Source: a virus (taxonomy: Duplodnaviria > Heunggongvirae > Uroviricota > Caudoviricetes). Taken from it: 12,357 bases of DNA. Below are positions 539 to 12,357 of the stretch, piece after piece; the first letter of the stretch is position 1; each line of letters starts with the position of its first letter. The translations under genes were made by a program, and so were the position numbers. A model generated the notes under the pieces. The model saw only the letters and a program-made list of their open reading frames with translations, was not told the DNA's origin and made no database searches. The DNA is taken from IMG/VR virus record IMGVR_UViG_2703718790_000029; one strand, written 5' to 3'.

Positions 539-1300
539 TCACCGCTGCTGTTCTCTGGTGGCGGTAATATCCCGGAGAATATCCCGGCACTTGTTCAGCT
601 CCCGCAGCGCGGCGCAGACTCGCTCCCACTTCTGAACCTGACCTTTTGCCCGGCGCAGCTCGCGGTTAGCCACATGCAGCGATGGTAAAATCAGACCATC
701 CGGATGCTTTCTGGTGAACGACGGCTGTGACTGCACTGTGACCGCCACACTTTCCGTTTTTATTTCTTCCTGTGTTGCGGCTTCCCGGACTGGTAACGCA
801 GCACCTGCTGGCTGAGGAAAGGCCTTACCATCATTTTTCGTTACCGGCGCGGCTTTCGGATCTGCTGGTAAATTACCCCCCGACATGCAGTAACGAAATT
901 TACCGTTCTGATTAACGCGTGCCAGCCGCCCCGTTGCGGTTACCACCGCCAGCGTGGAAGCAACCTTGCGAGTACTGACGCCGAACTTACCCGCCAGTTC
1001 CTCACACGTTTTAGCACCATCCTGACCGATAAACTCAACCATCATGTCTGCGGTAACTTTTGGAGCGACCTCTTCGGTTACCACATCCGGCGCTTCAGGT
1101 TGTAGTGCCTGCCCTTCGGTTACCCCGGCTTCACCTTCGACAGCCAGAAACCAGGTGTGACCCGTTTTATCAACAACGCCATTTTTTTTGAGTTCCCACA
1201 GTTCGTTAAGAACTTCTTCACGGCTGATATCAAGCCGCGCCGCCAGTTCAACAGAATTGGCTTTTCCCATCGCTTTCAGTGCATGCAATACAGTTTCCAT
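539..1300 (-). CDS. Hypothetical phage protein with two winged-helix-like segments
   Basis: 253-aa ORF with ATG at 1300 and GAGG about 11 nt upstream; sits downstream of the helicase-loader gene where lambdoid phages carry nin-region genes. Possibly a DUF1627-type protein; not verified. Confidence 0.55.
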   Translation of the reverse strand: METVLHALKAMGKANSVELAARLDISREEVLNELWELKKNGVVDKTGHTWFLAVEGEAGVTEGQALQPEAPDVVTEEVAPKVTADMMVEFIGQDGAKTCEELAGKFGVSTRKVASTLAVVTATGRLARVNQNGKFRYCMSGGNLPADPKAAPVTKNDGKAFPQPAGAALPVREAATQEEIKTESVAVTVQSQPSFTRKHPDGLILPSLHVANRELRRAKGQVQKWERVCAALRELNKCRDILRDITATREQQR

Positions 1301-1325
1301 CGAAAATTTACCTCGTCAAAAATTC

Positions 1326-2057
1326 TCACATACCCTGACGTCCAACGTTTGACCGCCAGCTCTCCCAGTTAAAATTCACCCAACGACCACCATTCATGGT
1401 CATACGGTCCATCACCCGATCTCCGAGGAGTGTGCTCATCGCTGCGTGATTCAGGTTCGTCAGCATTCCGACACTACGCATCGAAGCCGTTCTGCGGTCG
1501 ACTATCTGGTTCAGCGTGACCTGCTCGTTGCGCGTATCCCGCTGCATGCCAATTTCATCAAGGACCAGAAGGTCAACTCCACAAAGCTCCTGTAAAAATT
1601 TTTCCCCGGACTGGCCGTTGTCGTAGCCGTCATGCAACACGCTCATGACATCGGACACGGTGACGATAATCACGCTTCTCCCCTTCGCCATCAGCCGATT
1701 GCCAATCGCTGCTGCCAGGTGATTTTTACCGGTACCAGGTTTACCGCTGAACACGAAGTTTGTACATCCGGTCATCAATTCATCGGCAATGGATTTCGCC
1801 TGGCTCAGAGCATGGCGCTGACCGTCGTTCTGCACCCGGTAGTTCCCGAATGAGCACTTCCTGTGAAGCGGCTGGATGCCCGCACGGTTCAGGATTTTTT
1901 CAACCCGCACCTGATGATTCAGGCGGTTAATCTCCTCGCTGCGTTTTCGTCCTTCAGCAAGTTGCCATTCCCGCCACTCCTCCACCGTCCGGTACGGTGG
2001 AACCGCCCCCCTGTGGTGCAAGTCTGCGAATACGTTCAAGAACCCCAACTGCCGCAA
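1326..2057 (-). CDS. DnaC-like replicative helicase loader (phage P analogue, YdaV-like)
   Basis: Walker A motif FSGKPGTGKNHLAAAIGN, Walker B LLVLDEIG, and near-collinear similarity to E. coli DnaC as I recall it (e.g. CSFGNYRV, LNQIVDRR, RVMDRM). Start is TTG at 2057 in the ORF track; the true start is uncertain. Confidence 0.85.
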   Translation of the reverse strand: MRQLGFLNVFADLHHRGAVPPYRTVEEWREWQLAEGRKRSEEINRLNHQVRVEKILNRAGIQPLHRKCSFGNYRVQNDGQRHALSQAKSIADELMTGCTNFVFSGKPGTGKNHLAAAIGNRLMAKGRSVIIVTVSDVMSVLHDGYDNGQSGEKFLQELCGVDLLVLDEIGMQRDTRNEQVTLNQIVDRRTASMRSVGMLTNLNHAAMSTLLGDRVMDRMTMNGGRWVNFNWESWRSNVGRQGM

Positions 2058-2073
2058 TGTTTTTCATGACACG

Positions 2074-3036
2074 TCACCCCCTGAATCCCGGCGGTATTTC
2101 AGTGTCCGGTTCAGAAATGTGATTCACGCAACGCTGCGCGGGCGAACGCCCCAGGCGGATAACCAGTTCATCCCATTTTTCCCGGAGTTTTGCCGGACTC
2201 ATGATGTTTTTTACCCAGAACGAATCCCGCTGGAGACGCCCAAACATTTCACAAATTTGTCTGTGAGTTCTGCCATCCAGCATCCGCATTGTCCGCACGT
2301 CATTGGCCCATGCAGTCCAGTTGGGTTCTTTCGGTCTCGTGATCTCGCCATCATCGCTGGCCGCCTGCTCGTAAAGACTCACGATTCGTCCCCAGATCCA
2401 CTGTGCGCACACCAAATCTTCCTGACTTCCCCACTGGCGTTTTTTCGCACTGAACACAACCGCGTCAGGGTGTCGGGTTAAAAAATCCTGTTCAGCCGTC
2501 TGCGGGTCCGGTTGCGAAGCGTCCGGACAAGAAGATCTTTTATCTGACGGATCAGGTTTTAATACTGACGGATCGGGGTCAATCATCGCCCCCCTAATCG
2601 GCAGTTTGTTATCAACAGTTGATCCATCAAAATTTGACGGGTCAACCGTTGAGGGGGCAATATTTGACGGGTCAACTGTTAACGGGTCATTTTTTGCCGG
2701 GCTAATTTTTCTTTTCGGTTTATATGACTCACGCGCCGCCGCCGCAGCTGCTTCGAGTTTTTCCACATTAAGCCGATAGATATTGCTTACATTACGCCCA
2801 CCGACCTTACGCTCTTCCTTCGTCAGCCAGCCCTCTTTCGCCAGTTCTGCAATAGCCGATTTCACTGTGGATTCACTTCTTGCACCGATCTGACGCCGGA
2901 TAGTTTCAATGGCAGGCCATGACACGCCCTCGTCATTGCTGTAGTCTGCAAGACGGGCCATAACCGCCACCCTGGATAAGATCATGCCGGTGAAGGCGCA
3001 CCCTTCCCAGACAAGACCATGAAGCTTGCTGCTCAT
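2074..3036 (-). CDS. Replication initiator, O-like, with N-terminal winged-HTH and DnaT-like C-terminal domain
   Basis: C-terminal ...NHISEPDTEIPPGFRG resembles the C-terminus of E. coli DnaT as recalled. Iteron-like DNA repeats lie inside the gene. ATG at 3036 is preceded by GGGGG; the ORF track's GTG at 3051 is an alternative. Confidence 0.7.
   Translation of the reverse strand: MSSKLHGLVWEGCAFTGMILSRVAVMARLADYSNDEGVSWPAIETIRRQIGARSESTVKSAIAELAKEGWLTKEERKVGGRNVSNIYRLNVEKLEAAAAAARESYKPKRKISPAKNDPLTVDPSNIAPSTVDPSNFDGSTVDNKLPIRGAMIDPDPSVLKPDPSDKRSSCPDASQPDPQTAEQDFLTRHPDAVVFSAKKRQWGSQEDLVCAQWIWGRIVSLYEQAASDDGEITRPKEPNWTAWANDVRTMRMLDGRTHRQICEMFGRLQRDSFWVKNIMSPAKLREKWDELVIRLGRSPAQRCVNHISEPDTEIPPGFRG
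2540..2730. repeat. Putative replication origin: iteron-like direct repeats plus a flanking AT-rich tract inside the O-like gene
   Basis: CTGACGGATC at 2543-2552 and 2564-2573; ATTTGACGGGTCAAC at 2631-2645 and 2661-2675; related GGGTCAA copies near 2575 and GGGTCAT near 2683; T-rich tract 2687-2725. Lambda ori likewise lies within O. Confidence 0.45.
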
Positions 3037-3058
3037 AAAACCCCCGAACACCGTGCTT

Positions 3059-3484
3059 TTAGTGCATCACCACAGCATTCCCTGCCGGGCCGCCGCGATT
3101 CATCTGGTCATACAAAACAACCGCTGACGCAACAAAATCATCGACATCCTTCACCAGCCGATCCCTCCGTTCGACGATCTCACGGTAATATTCAGAACTG
3201 TGGCTGCGCATACGGGCCACCAGCAAAGGCGGCATCGCCTTTTCGATCGCCGGTAACAGAGCCTGCATTTTTTCAACAGCATCAGGGGTGTCTTTATCCA
3301 GCCAACGGAAAATTTTCTGGGTATTACGGGCCAGGGCTTCCGGATGGCTGTCGTCATACAGTTCCGGGAACGTCATTCCCAGCTCGAAATACGCTTTGGT
3401 AATTTTCGCAGCCGGTACTTTTTCGCCGTCCGGATGCGCCCAGACATTCATCGCCATGCGGATGTGTTCATGCTTGATTTTCAT
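3059..3484 (-). CDS. YdaT-like protein (second gene of the cro-side operon)
   Basis: 141-aa ORF starting MKIKHEHI; its ATG overlaps the stop of the upstream YdaS-like gene (ATGA), as in the Rac ydaS-ydaT arrangement. Family assignment from position and size. Confidence 0.55.
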   Translation of the reverse strand: MKIKHEHIRMAMNVWAHPDGEKVPAAKITKAYFELGMTFPELYDDSHPEALARNTQKIFRWLDKDTPDAVEKMQALLPAIEKAMPPLLVARMRSHSSEYYREIVERRDRLVKDVDDFVASAVVLYDQMNRGGPAGNAVVMH

Positions 3485-3783
3485 GAATCAACTCCATCAG
3501 ATAAGCATGCACTACAATCACCTTCAGCATGAACTACATGTGTTTGCCCCAAACGAATGCCGCTCGCATACTCAGGCCAAATAAGCTCCCAATCATGAGG
3601 TCGTAGCTCCGCCCTACTTACTTGGCCTTCCGTCGCAGATTCGATCATAAGGGCGCGGGTTGGAGATATAGCTGTTCGTCCAGACGCCATTTGCGATAAG
3701 TAAGATGGCGATACACCAAGTCTGGCCGCGAATTTCTTAGCATCACCAACCCTTAATGATTTAATAAACTCTTTTAATGTCAT
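3481..3783 (-). CDS. YdaS/Cro-like HTH regulator
   Basis: HTH-like segment AARLGVSPSYLSQMASG and ...GQVSRAELRPHDWE motif; GAGGAAGG Shine-Dalgarno just upstream of ATG 3783; divergent from the repressor-like gene. Confidence 0.65.
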   Translation of the reverse strand: MTLKEFIKSLRVGDAKKFAARLGVSPSYLSQMASGRTAISPTRALMIESATEGQVSRAELRPHDWELIWPEYASGIRLGQTHVVHAEGDCSACLSDGVDS

Positions 3784-3880
3784 ACCTTCCTCGGTTTAGT
3801 GTTTTTTTGCGAGTTTAGTGTTTAATAAACCATTAAGTCAAGTATTTGCTTGTTTAGTGATTACTAAAGATAATTACCAC
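3784..3880. promoter_or_regulatory. Divergent promoter/operator region (OR-like)
   Basis: Three direct GTTTAGTG copies (3794-3801, 3813-3820, 3852-3859). Candidate plus-strand promoter TTGCTT 3846-3851, 17-bp spacer, GATAAT 3869-3874, putting the start at about ATG 3881 (leaderless). Candidate minus-strand promoter TTGACT (revcomp of 3836-3841), TAAACT (revcomp of 3812-3817). Confidence 0.5.
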
Positions 3881-4252
3881 ATGCAAAAAAAAGAAATTCG
3901 CCGTTTACGTCTCAAGGAGTGGTTTAAAGATAAAACTCTGCCACCCAAAGAGAAGAGCTACCTATCTCAACTAATGAGTGGGAGAGCCTCGTTTGGAGAA
4001 AAGGCTGCCAGAAGAATAGAGCAAACATACGGGATGCCGGAAGGGTATCTGGATGCGGAATACGCAGAACAACCGGGGGTTTCTCCACCACATGCAGGGT
4101 TAACGTCTAATCAACTGGAATTATTGCAGATTTTTTCAGCCTTCCCTGAGGATGAGCAACGCCAGATAATCAGCGAGTTAAAGCAGAAAAAAGAATCAAT
4201 GGAAGATCTCATAGCGAGATGGATTGCGGCGCAAAAATGCCGCCGCGCCTGA
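3881..4252 (+). CDS. paaR2: PaaR2-like HTH regulator; candidate prophage repressor (cI position)
   Basis: First gene of a three-gene operon with the PaaA2/ParE2-like pair; N-terminal XRE-type HTH-like segment; no Shine-Dalgarno before ATG 3881. The ORF-track start (GTG 3818) is probably an over-extension. Confidence 0.55.
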   Translation: MQKKEIRRLRLKEWFKDKTLPPKEKSYLSQLMSGRASFGEKAARRIEQTYGMPEGYLDAEYAEQPGVSPPHAGLTSNQLELLQIFSAFPEDEQRQIISELKQKKESMEDLIARWIAAQKCRRA

Positions 4253-4272
4253 GTTATAAAACCGGAGGAAAC

Positions 4273-4464
4273 ATGAATAGAGCCCTTTCACCAATGGTTT
4301 CTGAATTTGAAACCATTGAACAAGAAAACAGTTACAACGAATGGCTGCGTGCGAAAGTAGCAACGAGCCTTGCAGATCCGCGCCCAGCAATTCCCCATGA
4401 CGAAGTTGAGCGCAGAATGGCAGAACGCTTTGCTAAGATGCGCAAGGAACGGAGCAAGCAGTAA
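4273..4464 (+). CDS. paaA2: PaaA2-like antitoxin (63 aa)
   Basis: GGAGG at 4264-4268 before ATG 4273; 63-aa product MNRALSPMVSEFETIEQENSYNEWLRAK... matches my recollection of E. coli O157 PaaA2; sits immediately upstream of the ParE-like toxin. Confidence 0.7.
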   Translation: MNRALSPMVSEFETIEQENSYNEWLRAKVATSLADPRPAIPHDEVERRMAERFAKMRKERSKQ

Positions 4465-4465
4465 A

Positions 4466-4744
4466 ATGTTACCCGTGTTATGGCTTGAAAGCGCAGATAC
4501 CGACCTAGATGATATAACTAGTTATATTGCTCGTTTCGACATAGATGCGGCTGAACGCTTATGGCAGCGATTAAGGGGTTGTGTGCTGCCGTTATCCGAA
4601 CATCCGTATTTATACCCACCAAGCGACAGAGTACCTAGCTTGCGTGAGATTGTAGCCCACCCTAACTATATAATTCTATACCGCGTAACAACATCAAGCG
4701 TTGAAGTAGTAAACGTGATCCACGCAAGACGCCAGTTTCCCTAA
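4466..4744 (+). CDS. parE2: ParE2-like toxin (RelE/ParE superfamily, 92 aa)
   Basis: ATG at 4466 lies 1 nt after the antitoxin stop; size and antitoxin-then-toxin order are typical of ParE family modules. The ORF-track start at 4370 overlaps the antitoxin and is unlikely. Confidence 0.7.
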   Translation: MLPVLWLESADTDLDDITSYIARFDIDAAERLWQRLRGCVLPLSEHPYLYPPSDRVPSLREIVAHPNYIILYRVTTSSVEVVNVIHARRQFP

Positions 4745-4762
4745 CTTTCACTACCAATAGAA

Positions 4763-4826
4763 ACATAACAACCGCAACGACTTTATCAAAAGCGTTGTGT
4801 TTGTTATGTCCCGCGGTTTAGTTTTT
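4763..4826 (+). terminator. Long imperfect hairpin downstream of parE2 (possible operon terminator or stabiliser)
   Basis: 4763-4779 ACATAACAACCGCAACG pairs with 4793-4809 CGTTGTGTTTGTTATGT (17 bp, one mismatch, one G-U); loop of 13 nt; T-run at 4822-4826 is not immediately adjacent to the stem. Confidence 0.4.
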
Positions 4827-4860
4827 ACTTGACTTAAGTTTAATGTTTATTAAACTAAAA
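4826..4860 (+). promoter_or_regulatory. pL-like promoter with an operator-like element (OL-like)
   Basis: TTGACT 4829-4834, 16-bp spacer, TAAACT 4851-4856. The segment 4826-4855 is an inverted copy of 3820-3844 (shared TACTTGACTTAA ... TTTATTAAAC). Confidence 0.45.
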
Positions 4861-5030
4861 ATACCACCCCGCCCCACAGAACGCAGGGAAATACTTCGAG
4901 TTACCCGGCAGTGGTCAGGGGTTAAGTAGCCAGCCCGAGGCGTATGAACATGACGGCAGGGTTCAACTTTAATAACTATGCAGCAGGTTTTTGTTCCGCT
5001 ACCCCGGCGTTAAGGGGAAATGAGGTCAGC

Positions 5031-5183
5031 ATGGATACTATCGATCTTGGCAACAACGCATCTCTGGTGTACGGCGTGTTTCCAAACCAGGACGGCACGT
5101 TCACCGCAATGACGTATACCAAAAGCAAAACGTTTAAAACCGAAAATGGTGCCCGTCGCTGGCTTGCCAAAAATACCAGCTAA
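5031..5183 (+). CDS. Small hypothetical protein (50 aa), possibly YdaF/YdfA-like
   Basis: GAGG at 5022-5025 is 5 nt before ATG 5031; an in-frame ATG at 4944 would give 79 aa. Family guessed from size and position only. Confidence 0.4.
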   Translation: MDTIDLGNNASLVYGVFPNQDGTFTAMTYTKSKTFKTENGARRWLAKNTS

Positions 5184-5381
5184 ACCATTTATTGGATTAA
5201 TTCAATATTCTTGCTGTAGGGGTATAGCCGAGGCCACCAAAGCCCGGAGGTGGTGAAATAAAACCGGGCACAACACGAAGGCGCATTTCCGGTATCCATA
5301 AAGAGTCGGTCTTGTCTGTTAAATTTAAATGGTGGGAGTGCGCCTCCGGTTGTGAATAACAACACTGCTGTGTGTAGTCTT

Positions 5382-5428
5382 GGCGGCATCAGTTTTTTCT
5401 TGAAGTTCGACTGATGTCCGCCCTTTTT
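5382..5428 (+). terminator. Intrinsic terminator-like hairpin
   Basis: GGCGGCATCAG (5382-5392) pairs with CTGATGTCCGCC (5411-5422), followed by CTTTTT (5423-5428). Confidence 0.55.
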
Positions 5429-5603
5429 AAAGTGAATTTTGTGATGCGGTGAATGCGGCTAAGCGCACGCGGCACAGTTAAAAGTCATGTTAGTCCTTAT
5501 TGGTTTGGGTGGGAAAGCCGACTGTAATTGTTAACTGGTTGCAGTCACCTGGAGGCACCAGGCACCGCATCAACAAAGTTCATTTGTAAAAATGGAGATA
5601 ATT

Positions 5604-5825
5604 ATGATTGCACATCACTTCGGAACTGATGAAATACCACGTCAGTGTGTGACTCCTGGTGATTATGTTCTTCATGAAGGCCGGACATATATCGCCTCGG
5701 CAAACAATATTAAAAAGCGAAAACTTTATATTCGTAACCTGACTACAAAAACATGCATTTCTGACTGCATGATTAAAGTCTTCCTCGGTCGTGATGGTTT
5801 ACCTGTAAAGGCGGAGTCATGGTGA
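5604..5825 (+). CDS. kilR: KilR-like cell-division inhibitor
   Basis: GGAG at 5594-5597 before ATG 5604; 73-aa product; sits upstream of ydaE-racC-recE as in Rac. Identity from size, order and partial sequence recollection. Confidence 0.6.
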
Positions 5826-6442: not shown

Positions 6443-8960
6443 ATGAGCACAAAACCACTCTTCCTTTTACGGAAAGCGAAAAAATCATCCGGTGAACCTG
6501 ACGTCGTCCTGTGGGCAAGCGACGATTTTGAATCAACCTGTGCCACTCTGGACTACCTGATCGTTAAGTCAGGTAAAAAACTGAGCAACTATTTTAAAGC
6601 TGTTGCCACAAATTTTCCTGTCGTTAATGACCTTCCCCCTGAAGGTGAGATCGATTTTACCTGGAGTGAACGCTATCAACTCAGCAAAGACTCCATGACC
6701 TGGGAACTAAAACCGGGAGCAGCGCCAGACGACGTTCACCATCAGGAGGATGCACCGGAAACCGAAGAACCGACGGGAGGCCAGGAAGAAAACGCGCAGG
6801 CAGACGCCCACGAGGATTGCCAGGATTGCGAAGTCTCTGTAGCCACTTTGCGGTTCACACAGCGTCTTCTGCACATTTTTACGTATGCAGCCGGGGATCG
6901 AAAATACCTGCATCATGCCACCCGTGAACAACGCAAACACATTACTGCTCTTGAGATGGATCAGGAAAACAGCTATGTCCAGAATCTGCTGTTGGCCATA
7001 CGCAGCATGGCAGAACCGACAACTCTGGATAATGCCGCCCTGCTCCGCCTGACTGATGCAATTAAGGCAGTGTTCTCTATCACGAAAAAACATCAGCCCT
7101 ATGAATTTAAGAATTTCATTTCAGCCTGGCTGGATACCGAACACATTGATCGCGGTCTTCTGACAAAAGAATGGCGAAAAGGGAATCGTGTTTCACGCAT
7201 CACTCGCACGGCTTCCGGTGCTAATGCTGGCGGCGGGAACCTCACCGATCGCGGCGAAGGTTTCGTCCACGATCTGACATCACTGGCGCGCGATGTAGCC
7301 ACTGGCGTACTGGCCCGTTCAATGGACGTGGACATCTATAACCTTCATCCGGCACACGCTAAACGCATTGAGGAAATTATCGCTGAAAATAAACCACCCT
7401 TTTCTGTTTTCCGCGACAAATTCATCACCATGCCTGGCGGGCTGGATTATTCCCGCGCCATCGTGGTTGCGTCCGTGAAAGAAGCACCAATTGGGATCGA
7501 GGTCATCCCCGCACACGTCACTGAATATCTGAACAAAGTACTGACTGAAACCGATCATGCCAACCCTGATCCGGAAATCGTGGATATTGCCTGCGGTCGC
7601 TCCTCGGCCCCGATGCCGCAACGAGTAACAGAAGAAGGAAAACAGGACGATGAAGAAAAACCACAACCATCTGGCGCAATGGCAGATGAACAGGCAACGG
7701 CTGAAACAGTGGAACCGAATGCAACTGAACATCATCAGAACACGCAGCCGCTGGATGCTCAGTCACAGGTAAATTCTGTTGATGCGAAATATCAGGAACT
7801 GCGGGCAGAACTCCATGAAGCCCGGAAAAACATTCCATCAAAAAATCCTGTCGATGCCGATAAATTGCTTGCTGCATCACGTGGTGAATTTGTTGACGGA
7901 ATTAGCGACCCGAACGATCCGAAATGGGTTAAGGGGATCCAGACTCGCGATTCTGTGTACCAGAACCAGCCAGAAACGGAAAAAATCAGCCCGGATGCGA
8001 AACAACCTGAGCCAGTAGTGCAACAGGAACCGGAAATAGTCTGCAATGCCTGCGGTCAGACTGGCGGGGATAACTGCCCTGACTGTGGTGCGGTGATGGG
8101 CGACGCAACATACCAGGAAACATTCGGTGAAGAGAATCAGGTTGAAGCTAAGGAAAAAGATCCGGAGGAAATGGAAGGCGCTGAACATCCGCACAATGAG
8201 AATGCTGGCAGCGATCCGCATCGCGATTGCAGTGATGAAACTGGCGAAGTCGCAGATCCCGTAATCGTAGAAGACATAGAGCCAGGTATTTATTACGGAA
8301 TTTCGAATGAGAATTACCACGCGGGTCCCGGCGTCAGTAAGTCTCAGCTCGATGACATTGCTGATACTCCGGCACTGTATTTGTGGCGTAAAAATGCCCC
8401 CGTGGACACTACAAAGACAAAAACGCTCGATTTAGGAACCGCTTTCCACTGCCGGGTACTTGAACCGGAAGAATTCAGTAACCGCTTTATCGTAGCACCT
8501 GAATTTAACCGCCGTACAAACGCCGGAAAAGAAGAAGAGAAAGCGTTTCTGATGGAATGCGCAAGCACAGGAAAAACGGTTATCACTGCGGAAGAAGGCC
8601 GGAAAATTGAACTCATGTATCAACGCGTTATGGCTTTGCCGCTGGGGCAATNNNNNNNNNNNNNNNNNNNNNNNNNNNNNNNNNNNNNNNNNNNNNNNNN
8701 NNNNNNNNNNNNNNNNNNACGGTTATGAAGCACAGTTTGGCGTGCTGCCAACTTTCGTTTTTCTGGTTGCCAGCACAACTGTTGAATGCGGACGTTACCC
8801 GGTTGAGATTTTCATGATGGGCGAAGAAGCAAAACTGGCAGGCCAGCAGGAATATCACCGCAATCTGAGGACCCTGGCTGACTGCCTGAATACCGATGAA
8901 TGGCCAGCTATTAAAACGTTATCACTGCCCCGCTGGGCTAAGGAGTATGCAAATGACTAA
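6443..8960 (+). CDS. recE: RecE exonuclease VIII, interrupted by an assembly gap
   Basis: Long acidic N-terminal region and a C-terminal nuclease domain (...[36 protein letters not shown]...[17 protein letters not shown]...). The post-gap reading ends ...[10 protein letters not shown] at 8960 and overlaps the recT start (ATGACTAA). Frame across the gap cannot be verified. Confidence 0.8.
8652..8718. other. Assembly gap (67 N)
   Basis: Run of N characters inside recE. Confidence 0.99.
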
Positions 8961-9762: not shown

Positions 9763-9818
9763 TTCAGCCTGGCGGTGTAATGCACCGCCAACGTGAGACA
9801 GTTTTTATGACAAAAATT

Positions 9819-10013
9819 ATGAGATATGACGATGTTAAACCATGTCCGTTTTGTGGTTGTCCATCTGTTACAGTGAAAGCAATTTCAGGATATTACCGGG
9901 CAAAATGCAACGGATGCGAATCCCGAACTGGCTATGGTGGAAGTGAAAAAGAAGCACTCGAAAGATGGAATAAACGAACTACTGGAAATAATAATGGAGG
10001 TGTTCATGTATAA
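9819..10013 (+). CDS. ralR: Lar/RalR-like restriction-alleviation protein (64 aa)
   Basis: Zinc-ribbon motifs CPFCGC ... CNGCES; position between recT and xis as in Rac. Alternative start at ATG 9807. Confidence 0.6.
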   Translation: MRYDDVKPCPFCGCPSVTVKAISGYYRAKCNGCESRTGYGGSEKEALERWNKRTTGNNNGGVHV

Positions 10014-10194
10014 AATAACTGCCACTATTGAAAAAGAAGGTGGCACTCCTACTAACTGGACAAGATATTCAAAATCTAAATTAACGAAATCAGAATGCGA
10101 AAAAATGCTCTCAGGGAAAAAAGAAGCAGGCGTGTCCAGAGAGCAGAAAGTAAAGCTGATAAATTTTAATTGCGAGAAACTTCTGTCCTCGTGA
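10006..10194 (+). CDS. YdaC-like small protein (62 aa)
   Basis: GGAGG at 9995-9999 before ATG 10006, which overlaps the ralR stop (ATGTATAA); sits between ralR and xis as ydaC does in Rac. Confidence 0.45.
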   Translation: MYKITATIEKEGGTPTNWTRYSKSKLTKSECEKMLSGKKEAGVSREQKVKLINFNCEKLLSS

Positions 10195-11712: not shown

Positions 11713-11754
11713 TTTCGGGGAGACGTTTGCAACTAATTGATTTTAAATACAATT

Positions 11755-11777
11755 AAAAAAAGACCGAATACGATTCC
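11755..11777. other. Putative attL core (3'-terminal ~23 nt of sdsR)
   Basis: Placed from the recalled report (Balbontin et al. 2008) that the last ~23 bp of ryeB serve as a phage attachment site. The exact crossover cannot be set without the other prophage end or an unoccupied site. Confidence 0.4.
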
Positions 11778-11857
11778 TGTATTCGGTCCAGGGAAATGGC
11801 TCTTGGGAGAGAGCCGTGCGCTAAAAGTTGGCATTAATGCAGGCTTAGTTGCCTTGC
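11755..11857 (-). ncRNA. sdsR: SdsR (RyeB) small RNA
   Basis: Revcomp of 11755-11857 reads GCAAGGCAACTAAGCCTGCATTAATGCC...CTGGACCGAATACAGGAATCGTATTCGGTCTTTTTTT, matching SdsR as I recall it, including the 10-bp terminator stem and U-tract. Confidence 0.7.
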
Positions 11858-11986
11858 CCTTTAAGAATAGATGACGACGCCAGGTTTTCCAGTTTGCGTG
11901 CAAAATGGTCAATAAAAAGCGTGGTGGTCATCAGCTGAAATGTTAAAAACCGCCCGTTCTGGTGAAAGAACTGAGGCGGTTTTTTT
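11760..11986 (+). ncRNA. ryeA: Possible RyeA/SraC antisense RNA (ends approximate)
   Basis: RyeA is known to be antisense to and longer than RyeB. A plus-strand promoter-like TTGCAA (11727-11732) ... TACAAT (11748-11753) and the terminator at 11948-11986 would bound a transcript of about 230 nt. Inferred, not directly supported. Confidence 0.3.
11858..11900 (-). promoter_or_regulatory. Candidate sigma-S-type promoter of sdsR
   Basis: Revcomp of 11865-11871 reads CTATTCT, resembling the extended sigma-S -10 (CTATACT), a few nt upstream of the inferred 5' end. Confidence 0.4.
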
Positions 11987-12015: not shown

Positions 12016-12357
12016 TTAACAGAGTTTTTCAGCTCGTTCTATAAACGGTGCCAGACTCATTTTTTCGCCGGGATTGTTAGGATCATCAATCTGAATCACC
12101 GAAATGGGTTGGGCTTTAGTCTTCCCACTGGCAACTTCCTTTTGTGCGATATCGTTTAAAGGATACTGCACGAGGGTACTTGGGTTAATGACATACAAAG
12201 CATTACCCGGTCTGCAAGTCAGCATCACCTCTTCGCGATTAAACGCCCATTTGTCTTTACCCACTTCAAAACGACTGACGGTAATCACCTGCGGTGCAGC
12301 CAGCGCCGCTGCAGAACTGGTGAGTAACAGAAACGTCAGAATACTTTTTTTCATCAT
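12016..12357 (-). CDS. yebY: YebY-like small secreted protein (host gene)
   Basis: 113-aa ORF with an N-terminal signal peptide ([22 protein letters not shown]); start at the window edge. Matches my recollection of E. coli YebY, which neighbours the ryeA/ryeB locus. Confidence 0.65.

Follow-up and report, generated by a model that had tools for sequence, protein, structure and literature searches.

Among described systems, the closest to the locus examined here is the immunity region of prophage CP-933P of E. coli O157:H7, in which PaaR2 occupies the cI position and acts as a CI analogue (Jurenas et al., mBio 2021, PMC8630535). The locus was earlier described, according to the account given in that paper, as a three-component toxin-antitoxin system (Hallez 2010, via PMC8630535). 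The paaR2 mRNA is leaderless: the PRM933P start mapped by 5' RACE coincides with that of translation, and the protein begins MQKKE according to N-terminal sequencing and mass spectrometry (PMC8630535). PaaR2 and the Cro-like YdaS both footprint the 97-bp paaR2-ydaS intergenic region, of which PaaR2 protects about 78 bp, and both repress PR, PRM and PL, with PL933P repressed about 100-fold; PaaR2 activates PRM933P at low dose and represses it at high dose (PMC8630535). The operators were described as four equally spaced palindromes, and PL933P, which adjoins parE2, as carrying the same -35 and -10 elements as PR933P together with three operators; 5' RACE was 'in line with' the predicted PR933P, and the exact sequences bound by PaaR2 and those bound by YdaS could not be told apart (PMC8630535). 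The CII-like YdaT is an activator of a PRE-like promoter. The locus shows bistability, with the majority of cells ydaST-on, not PaaR2-on, in a plasmid reporter (PMC8630535).

ParE2 is reported to be toxic, PaaA2 to neutralise it and the pair to be addictive, all for the G58 allele of the toxin, and a ydaST-RAE2 segment stabilises a mini-F plasmid (PMC8630535). PaaA2 has no DNA-binding domain. PaaR2 carries no RecA-cleavage motif or domain and showed no response to mitomycin C (PMC8630535), so that the classical SOS induction route is missing. CP-933P/Sp12 itself is cryptic, and mitomycin C does not induce it; in the authors' proposal, the toxin-antitoxin pair restrains rearrangements of the immunity region (PMC8630535). 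Subsequent work described paaA2-parE2 as replacing rexA-rexB, and YdaT as a POU-domain tetramer (Prolic-Kalinsek et al. 2023, PMC9986795) that binds TTGATTN6AATCAA.

We analysed a stretch of viral DNA of 12,357 nucleotides (hereafter the window), whose positions 3784-4860 had been read in a first-pass annotation as a lambda-like switch with PaaR2 as the repressor. The open reading frame list and the sequence bear out its description of the gene content: paaR2 (3881-4252, + strand, 123 aa), paaA2 (4273-4464, + strand, 63 aa) and parE2 (4466-4744, + strand, 92 aa, starting 1 nt past the paaA2 stop) stand alone between the divergent cro/cII-like operon, formed by ydaS (3481-3783, - strand) and ydaT (3059-3484, - strand), and the early-left genes. 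Besides these three, no other credible gene was found between ydaS and the DUF1391 gene (5031-5183), the next gene on the + strand past parE2. A GTG-started frame at 3818-4252 (144 aa) was considered as the true paaR2 and rejected, since the published N-terminal sequencing and mass spectrometry (PMC8630535) place the start at MQKKE, which the window encodes at 3881. The wider layout is also that of lambda: replication genes follow on the right of ydaT, and the left side of PL has kilR, recE, recT, xis and int.

The encoded proteins match those of CP-933P closely. Residues 1-66 of PaaR2, the putative CI-analogue repressor, are identical to PDB 7nkv/8c3k, titled 'Phage repressor protein CI', and the protein matches phrog_5736, a transcriptional regulator. 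It had no Pfam family match at E <= 0.01, neither HTH_3 nor Peptidase_S24, and by sequence it falls outside the Lambda CI/LexA-like family, having no recognisable XRE/HTH_3 domain and no C-terminal Peptidase_S24 autocleavage domain. The antitoxin PaaA2 is identical to PDB 3zbe (PaaA2) over residues 2-63 and matches PF21217 (E 1e-19), and by these Pfam and PDB matches it is an antitoxin of the PaaA2 type, without a DNA-binding domain, as in the three-component RAE2 locus. The toxin ParE2 is identical to PDB 5cw7_B at 91 of its 92 residues (S58 here, G58 there) and belongs to PF05016 (E 2.9e-16); a ParE-family toxin gene directly downstream of the antitoxin and a paaR2 regulator gene upstream on the same strand complete the RAE2 arrangement. 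YdaS, the Cro-like regulator, matches PF15943 and HTH_3, while YdaT, the CII-like activator, matches PF06254 and phrog_163 ('CII-like transcriptional activator') and is identical over residues 2-141 of 141 to PDB 8bt1, the CP-933P protein. There is in addition a weak similarity between the N-terminal domain of PaaR2 and the helix-turn-helix of YdaS (35% identity over 46 residues, including SYLSQxxSGR; E 3e-4 in a single-pair comparison), and a shared DNA-binding motif of this kind fits two proteins reading the same operators.

Genes, gene order, promoters and operators are the same as in CP-933P/Sp12. Across 3400-5020, the window differs from O157:H7 FRIK2455 by three substitutions (3598, 4080 and 4637) and a 5-bp indel after 4863, all of which leave the OR interval, OL palindromes and promoter hexamers unaltered. 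The substitution at 3598 falls in ydaS, and paaR2 differs by one codon (V67 here, G67 in O157:H7), as does ParE2 at residue 58, with S58 in place of the G58 of CP-933P. Furthermore, 28 of the 30 locus-specific primers of PMC8630535 map exactly to the window, which allowed us to place on it the fragments used in the published EMSA, footprint, PRM, PR, PL and PRE experiments. Primer R-CP933P-Sal has no match in the window (9 mismatches), because the similarity to CP-933P stops at about 5020; the O157:H7 locus as a whole is homologous to the window over 578-5020 only. We note that the window is nevertheless not CP-933P/Sp12 itself: its backbone is that of a Rac-like prophage (a DUF1391 gene, kilR, recE/recT, ralR/RalA and an intact integrase) at ryeA/ryeB-yebY, whereas the CP-933P backbone carries ydfC, dicB, another exonuclease and a broken integrase and adjoins ynfA.

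The operator region OR (3784-3880) is 97 bp long, as reported for CP-933P (PMC8630535), and the EMSA primers FL1 and FL2 map exactly to its ends (3784-3803 and 3859-3880). Two well-conserved palindromes lie in it (3813-3830 and 3852-3869), and there is another GTTTAGTG unit at 3794. As in a lambda-type switch, two promoters stand back to back in this gap between the divergent paaR2 and ydaS. PR, on the - strand (3841 to 3812), would drive ydaS-ydaT from a -35 TTGACT (3841-3836), an 18-nt spacer and a -10 TAAACT (3817-3812), with transcription probably starting near 3805. PRM, on the + strand (3846-3881), has a -35 TTGCTT (3846-3851), a 17-nt spacer and a -10 GATAAT (3869-3874), and the transcript would begin at the A of the paaR2 ATG (3881). 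The GATAAT ends 6 nt before this ATG, which is preceded by CTAAAGATAATTACCAC and has no Shine-Dalgarno sequence; the suggestion that paaR2 is transcribed from its own start codon thus fits the sequence, and agrees with the 5' RACE and N-terminal sequencing carried out on identical CP-933P DNA (PMC8630535).

Beyond the paaR2 operon, OL/PL (4816-4862, + strand) presents palindromes at 4816-4833 and 4838-4855 and a promoter, PL, with a -35 TTGACT (4829-4834), a 16-nt spacer and a -10 TAAACT (4851-4856), hexamers identical to those of PR; a transcription start is predicted near 4863. The published PL933P reporter fragment maps exactly to 4745-4862. The outward-facing promoter-like sequences that had been proposed to overlap two operator-like elements were therefore both found, and repeated operators overlap PR and PRM, with a second cluster at the PL-like promoter, as in a lambda-type switch.

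The elements themselves, 3820-3844 and the reverse complement of 4826-4855, had been described as two inverted repeats of about 25 bp, and they are indeed related. An inverted-repeat search found arms at 3820-3843 and 4832-4855 (24 nt, 79% complementary) and at 3833-3844 and 4826-4837 (12 nt, 100% complementary), and when the reverse complement of the 97-bp intergenic region was aligned locally, with gaps, to 4745-4943, both pairs were joined (3844 to 3814 against 4826-4859) with a score of 30, which none of 2000 shuffles reached (mean 15.7, maximum 27). OR and OL align with a higher score still in direct orientation (3789-3830 against 4811-4855, score 37), because the units are themselves palindromic 18-mers. 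Only four 18-mers of the window agree with the published palindrome (half-site GTTTAGTAA) in at least 13 of 18 positions; they start at 3813, 3852, 4816 and 4838, two in each cluster. The similarity is real, and the picture of two inverted elements simplifies what are rather two operator arrays.

A second route to paaR2 expression is suggested by the region at the ydaS stop and ydaT start. Here TTGATTTTCATGAATCAA (3474-3491), the putative YdaT operator OM, is the sole exact match within the window to the published TTGATTN6AATCAA site (PMC9986795). It lies within the PRE933P reporter fragment (3456-3575, + strand; primers F-PRE and R-PRE map exactly to 3456-3475 and 3557-3575), which carries a promoter directed towards paaR2, antisense to ydaS, and activated by YdaT in the published assays (PMC8630535). 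A CII-type activator with its site at a PRE-like promoter antisense to cro is thus represented here by YdaT, the exact site and the PRE fragment.

At the other end of the operon, a long imperfect hairpin lies between the parE2 stop and OL (4763-4809, + strand; an inverted repeat with 22-nt arms, 82% complementary), and the RNA fold of 4745-4825 has an energy of -24 kcal/mol (z = -4.5). By analogy with lambda tIMM, this hairpin may form the 3' end or terminator of the paaR2 operon; it has no adjacent T run, and the terminator scan made no call there. A search of the whole window against Rfam at E <= 1 gave nothing real within 3784-4860, the match of the hairpin to mir-4703 (E 0.69) being meaningless. 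The segment that follows (4864-4950, + strand), 87 bp shared with Rac, marks the end of the immunity cassette and the predicted start of the early-left transcript. The fold of the conserved leader at 4863-4950 (z = 0.04) gave no support for a structured RNA of the antitermination type.

Taken together, we regard it as highly probable that a lambdoid Rac-like prophage has in this region its immunity (lysis/lysogeny-type) switch, which is of the CP-933P type and wired as follows. PaaR2, translated from a leaderless PRM transcript beginning with the paaR2 ATG, would bind palindromic 18-bp operators of the above half-site in OR and OL (4816-4855). At OR it would repress PR, and with it ydaS, ydaT and the replication genes, and would stimulate PRM at low dose and repress it at high dose; at OL it would repress PL, and thereby the early-left genes (here kilR, recET, xis and int). 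YdaS would act on the same operators, favouring PRM first, and the sharing of operators by YdaS and PaaR2 would make the switch bistable, while YdaT, at its site, would switch on PRE. The paaA2-parE2 pair would share the paaR2 transcript, just as rexA-rexB share that of lambda cI, and, having no regulator of its own, would depend on the phage switch. It probably serves for addiction, killing cells that lose or replace the immunity cassette. The PRM start, the occupancy of OR, the repression of PR, PRM and PL, YdaT binding and PRE activation, bistability and plasmid stabilisation have all been shown on near-identical DNA. The exact operator-to-protein assignments, OR-OL looping by the reported octamer and any control of real prophage induction by PaaR2 are inferred.

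That the likeness between OR and OL arose by chance is extremely improbable. Both regions are AT-rich, and the 9-mer half-site with two mismatches is not strongly enriched across the window (44 occurrences against 32.9 expected, a count reached by 5 of 200 shuffles), a test too permissive to be informative, for which the 18-mer palindrome test was substituted. Against coincidence stand the failure of every shuffle to reach the alignment score, the identity of the PR and PL hexamers, the confinement of full 18-mer palindromes to OR and OL, and function demonstrated on the same fragments (PMC8630535), which together refute it. It also seems very unlikely that PaaR2 is merely the third component of a toxin-antitoxin system, a split-off DNA-binding domain of the antitoxin, with autoregulatory repeats and the true repressor encoded elsewhere. 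This would accord with the historical three-component description as relayed in PMC8630535, and with the want of a DNA-binding domain in PaaA2 reported there. However, PaaR2 represses PR (ydaS-ydaT) and PL, promoters beyond its own operon (PMC8630535); no other repressor-like gene was found in the immunity position of the window or is annotated nearby in the O26 prophage; and Klebsiella phage 5 LV-2017 has a homologue of PaaR2 without a significant match to PaaA2 or ParE2 in the 5.4-kb locus. This explanation is therefore largely refuted, and PaaR2 in the cI position of a lambda-like switch, as first proposed, is upheld by the published footprints and promoter repression on near-identical DNA (PMC8630535).

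A weightier question concerns the biological role of the switch, the molecular wiring being the same in either case. The switch may be a fossil in this prophage, which would be defective and take no lysis/lysogeny decision, with the regulated, addictive toxin-antitoxin pair guarding the cassette and the prophage from loss or replacement; we consider this quite possible, while leaning somewhat against it. The DnaC-like replication gene in the window has a 1-bp insertion at 2006 relative to O157:H7 and is annotated as frameshifted in O26:H11 strain 11368, so that the prophage is possibly defective. The cryptic, non-inducible state of CP-933P/Sp12, its authors' view of the toxin-antitoxin pair as limiting rearrangement, and the stabilisation of mini-F all point the same way. 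On the other hand, the O26 prophage retains its integrase, excisionase, recET, Q, lysis, terminase, portal and head genes, and the isolated coliphage Evi, which has the same 5-bp insertion exactly after 4863 as O157:H7, carries the complete cassette with intact reading frames, so that this switch very probably operates in a live phage elsewhere.

The reading of the region as an immunity switch is thus correct, and was already published in 2021-2023 (PMC8630535, PMC9986795) for essentially the same DNA, including the placement of the toxin-antitoxin pair in the rexAB-like slot, which PMC9986795 states. The additions made here are small: a copy in a different, Rac-like prophage at ryeAB/yebY, and the same cassette in Evi. 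Of 5,426 complete E. coli genomes, about 595 contain the cassette, which occurs at no fewer than three integration sites and with different replication and early-left modules. Tentatively, and as a proposal we rate unlikely as a whole, the cassette would act in viable backbones (Evi, and perhaps the O26 prophage at ryeAB/yebY) as a working lysogeny switch whose repressor is not RecA-cleavable; the unit from ydaT to PL, with its junction at about PL +1, would move between unrelated lambdoid backbones; and paaA2-parE2 would kill recombinants that swap in another immunity cassette. If this is true, paaA2-parE2 would make the cassette a selfish 'immunity allele', unlike rexAB, a host-defence passenger. 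A toxin-antitoxin pair without autoregulation that is wired into a lysis/lysogeny-type switch would couple addiction to immunity, and a mobile mosaic module of this kind, present also in an isolated phage, offers a natural system for studying a possible role of PaaR2 in the upkeep of lysogeny and the way in which such a phage is induced.

Among relatives, the Rac prophage of E. coli K-12, a prophage of like kind, has racR and ydaS-ydaT in the corresponding slot. Of the interval 3750-4950, about 2,800 further E. coli genomes contain only 4864-4950; K-12 Rac is among them, and there this leader sits downstream of racR and is followed by genes that are also common to the window. The Rac YdaS and YdaT are distant homologues of the window proteins (YdaS, 40% identity over 58 aa; YdaT, 31% over 144 aa), and regulation by YdaT has been reported to differ (PMC11879457). 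Homology between PaaR2 and RacR was considered and rejected (BLASTP E 0.055, no similarity), so that the two appear to be alternative alleles of the slot, not homologues; Rac, moreover, has no toxin-antitoxin pair after racR. In Klebsiella phage 5 LV-2017, the PaaR2 homologue (44.6% identity) lies opposite a YdaS homologue and beside a CII-like gene, and neither PaaA2 nor ParE2 had a significant match in the 5.4 kb of this locus, which extends 2.5 kb to each side, indicating that the PaaR2 repressor family also exists without the toxin-antitoxin pair.

The likeness to lambda lies in the architecture. In both, a leaderless repressor gene diverges from cro, with PR and PRM back to back in a short operator region; a second cluster of operators and promoter past the repressor operon faces the early-left genes; accessory genes are co-transcribed with the repressor; a CII-type activator serves an antisense promoter within or after cro; and PRM is activated at low and repressed at high repressor dose, as reported for PaaR2 (PMC8630535). 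The parts, in contrast, have no detectable sequence relationship. PaaR2, of only 123 aa, is without Pfam HTH_3 or Peptidase_S24 domains and without RecA-mediated cleavage, four equally spaced palindromes are described for CP-933P (PMC8630535) instead of three operators, YdaT is a POU-domain tetramer and does not have the CII fold (PMC9986795), and the passengers are a ParE-type toxin-antitoxin pair in place of the RexAB exclusion system.

The interval 3784-4860 contains three genes, all on the plus strand: paaR2 (3881-4252; 123 aa), paaA2 (4273-4464; 63 aa) and parE2 (4466-4744; 92 aa). To the left of paaR2, on the minus strand, lie ydaS (3481-3783), ydaT (3059-3484), an O-like replication initiator gene (2074-3051) and a DnaC/IstB-like ATPase gene (1326-2057); to the right of parE2, on the plus strand, lie a DUF1391 gene (5031-5183) and kilR (5592-5825), followed by recE, recT, ralR and the excisionase and integrase genes. 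This matches the lambda order of replication genes, cII, cro, repressor operon and early-left genes with int last. Over residues 1-66, PaaR2 shows 100% identity to PDB 7nkv/8c3k, entered there under the name 'Phage repressor protein CI'; the same holds for PaaA2 over residues 2-63 against 3zbe and for YdaT over residues 2-141 against 8bt1 (CP-933P YdaT), and ParE2 shares 91 of its 92 residues with 5cw7_B. Pfam matches were obtained to PaaA2, ParE_toxin, YdaS_toxin/HTH_3 and YdaT_toxin; PaaR2 had no Pfam match, and the PHROGs label is transcriptional regulator for this protein and CII-like activator for YdaT.

This locus has been studied by Jurenas et al. (mBio 2021; PMC8630535) in CP-933P, a cryptic prophage of E. 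coli O157:H7 EDL933, where paaR2 occupies the cI position, as the first-pass annotation had proposed for the regulator. When the oligonucleotides of that paper were placed on the window, 28 of 30 locus-specific primers matched exactly; one other has a single mismatch, at a ydaS substitution, and the last has no site, as homology stops short of it. The published EMSA fragment thereby maps to 3784-3880, and the PRM/PR, PL and PRE reporter fragments to 3808-3881, 4745-4862 and 3456-3575, respectively. Aligned to O157:H7 FRIK2455, 3400-5020 shows only four differences: one in ydaS (3598), one in PaaR2 (4080; V67 here, G67 in O157:H7), one in ParE2 (4637; S58 here, G58 in O157:H7) and a 5-bp insertion in O157:H7 and phage Evi directly after 4863. 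The operator region OR (the 97-bp paaR2-ydaS intergenic region), both palindromes of the second cluster, OL, and every promoter hexamer are identical. The proposed interpretation is supported yet already published in detail, including the leaderless start, the operators at PL and the analogy of the toxin-antitoxin pair to rexAB.

The two flanking elements had been described as inverted relatives, and this relationship is real: arms at 3820-3843 and 4832-4855 (24 nt) are 79% complementary, those at 3833-3844 and 4826-4837 (12 nt) perfectly so, and a gapped inverted alignment of 3844->3814 with 4826-4859 scores 30 (shuffle maximum 27; 0 of 2000 reached 30). It needs refinement, however: in direct orientation OR and OL align better still (score 37), since the element that recurs is an 18-nt palindrome in its own right. 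Within the 12.4-kb window, only four 18-mers agree with the published palindrome (half-site GTTTAGTAA) in at least 13 of 18 positions; they start at 3813 and 3852 (OR) and 4816 and 4838 (OL). Each element also holds the expected outward-facing, sigma-70-like promoter, with identical hexamers: PR (TTGACT-18-TAAACT, 3841->3812, minus strand) and PL (TTGACT-16-TAAACT, 4829-4856, plus strand). In PRM (plus strand), GATAAT (3869-3874) ends 6 nt before the paaR2 ATG, with TTGCTT 17 nt farther upstream; inspection of the upstream sequence bore out the lack of a Shine-Dalgarno 5' of this ATG. We infer a PL start near 4863, and also which palindrome would bind which protein first. The PaaR2 N-domain (3881-4020) and the YdaS helix-turn-helix (3640-3783, minus strand) are 35% identical across 46 residues, SYLSQxxSGR among them, a likeness consistent with two proteins reading one operator set; the recognition helices of the repressor and its Cro-like antagonist may be related. 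Between the parE2 stop and OL lies an imperfect hairpin (4763-4809; 22-nt arms, 3-nt loop), and RNA from 4745-4825 folds at -24 kcal/mol (z = -4.5). The hairpin has no adjacent T run and shows no covariation in phage Evi; by analogy with lambda tIMM, it may form the 3' end or terminator of the repressor operon.

In CP-933P, the PR933P and PRM933P promoters lie inside the 97-bp intergenic stretch, and 5' RACE placed the PRM933P start at the paaR2 start codon, which upholds, on near-identical DNA, the suggestion that transcription starts at the regulator's ATG; N-terminal sequencing (MQKKE) and mass agree with leaderless translation (PMC8630535). In EMSA and DNase I footprints on this region, PaaR2 protected ~78 bp and YdaS ~65 bp; both proteins repress PR and PRM, the latter being activated at low PaaR2 dose. 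PL933P adjoins the operon, has the same -35/-10 as PR933P plus three operators, and is repressed ~100-fold by either PaaR2 or YdaS. The same study reported a PRE-like, YdaT-activated promoter between ydaS and ydaT, bistable, heritable states, an mScarlet reporter at the operon 3' end showing paaA2-parE2 to be carried on the repressor operon, and a toxin-antitoxin pair that is addictive and may shield the immunity region from recombination (PMC8630535). YdaT was later mapped to a TTGATTN6AATCAA repeat at the ydaS end (Prolic-Kalinsek et al. 2023; PMC9986795), and the published site occurs exactly once in the window, at 3474-3491.

Published experiments on near-identical DNA show that a leaderless PRM transcript yields PaaR2, which occupies OR, turns off PR (ydaS, ydaT and, judging from their position, the replication genes), modulates its own promoter and also silences PL and with it the early-left genes. 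YdaS is a competitor at these operators, so that two states are stable, and YdaT switches PRE on. As position and the mScarlet reporter show, paaA2-parE2 ride on the repressor operon without a regulator of their own; the reported PaaR2 octamer might loop OR to OL. Since PaaR2 has no S24 autocleavage domain (no Pfam match; also PMC8630535), CP-933P is cryptic and the prophage here is possibly defective, we infer lysogeny maintenance by PaaR2 only from promoter control.

The prophage in the window is not CP-933P. Its 3400-5300 interval matches a prophage carried by O26:H11 strains at 100% identity, with zero differences from strain 11368 anywhere 5' of a masked run at 8652. This run (67 N, 8652-8718) masks part of recE; coordinates 3' of it are ~134 nt shorter than in the 11368 record, so it stands in for a longer piece. 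The O26 prophage adjoins the ryeA/ryeB sRNA locus and yebY; its early-left arm is of the Rac type, its integrase is apparently intact, and genes for Q, lysis, terminase, portal and head follow farther on, whereas CP-933P adjoins ynfA, has dicB-type early-left genes and is homologous only to 578-5020. The host pair SraC/RyeA (11751-11895, plus; 179 bits) and SdsR/RyeB (11755-11854, minus; 118 bits) begins 88 nt past the integrase stop (11663), with yebY (12016-12357, minus) coming next; this places the integration beside the ryeA/ryeB locus. An extra C at 2006, relative to the intact O157:H7 gene, causes a frameshift near the start of the DnaC/IstB-like gene, annotated as frameshifted in strain 11368, so this prophage too may be defective, in replication. 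A full-length RalA antitoxin sRNA (Rfam RF02694; 219 bits; 10012-10190, minus) adjoins a ralR-like ORF (9780-10013, plus), a second toxin-antitoxin system (type I) likewise present in Rac. Just 5' of kilR, within the PL operon, are matches below gathering score to DicF (5369-5423, plus; 42.8 against 48 bits) and STnc100 (5425-5611, plus; 37.4 against 47 bits); the Rac-type arm may thus hold a DicF-like sRNA.

The cassette also occurs at potC in three other genomes; no two of these share the same replication module, and none has the one in the window. The genes ydaT, ydaS, paaR2, paaA2 and parE2 are kept together in each of the five prophage contexts examined (the window-matching O26 prophage, CP-933P and the three at potC). 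At least 80% of 3750-4950 is held by ~595 of 5,426 complete E. coli genomes, and ~2,800 further genomes hold 4864-4950 alone, among them K-12, in whose Rac prophage it lies just downstream of racR. This 87-bp segment starts right after the PL -10 and is found at ~90-99% identity in ~3,400 complete E. coli genomes, the majority without the PaaR2 cassette; the RNA structure predicted for it does not surpass that of shuffles (z = 0.04). Its distribution indicates that the cassette stops at about the start of PL, and that a single slot is filled either by racR or by paaR2-paaA2-parE2; the segment marks, at about PL +1, the mosaic junction of the immunity cassette.

Coliphage Evi (LR597642.1), described as an isolate from infant faecal samples (PMC10910852), holds the complete cassette from ydaT to parE2 at 23510-25192 (PaaR2 98.4%, PaaA2 98.4% and ParE2 98.9% identical), with one substitution in OR; its parE2 is intact, and is missing from the record's annotation. 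In the immunity position of Klebsiella phage 5 LV-2017 (KY271399.1, 1602-2860), a PaaR2 homologue that the record leaves unannotated (44.6% identity) faces a homologue of YdaS (55.6%), adjoining an annotated 'CII decision making protein'; neither PaaA2 nor ParE2 gave a significant match within this phage's 5.4-kb locus, leaving no toxin-antitoxin pair behind the repressor. Both phages fit the view of Jurenas et al. that PaaR2 is a phage repressor first, behind which the toxin-antitoxin pair was inserted.
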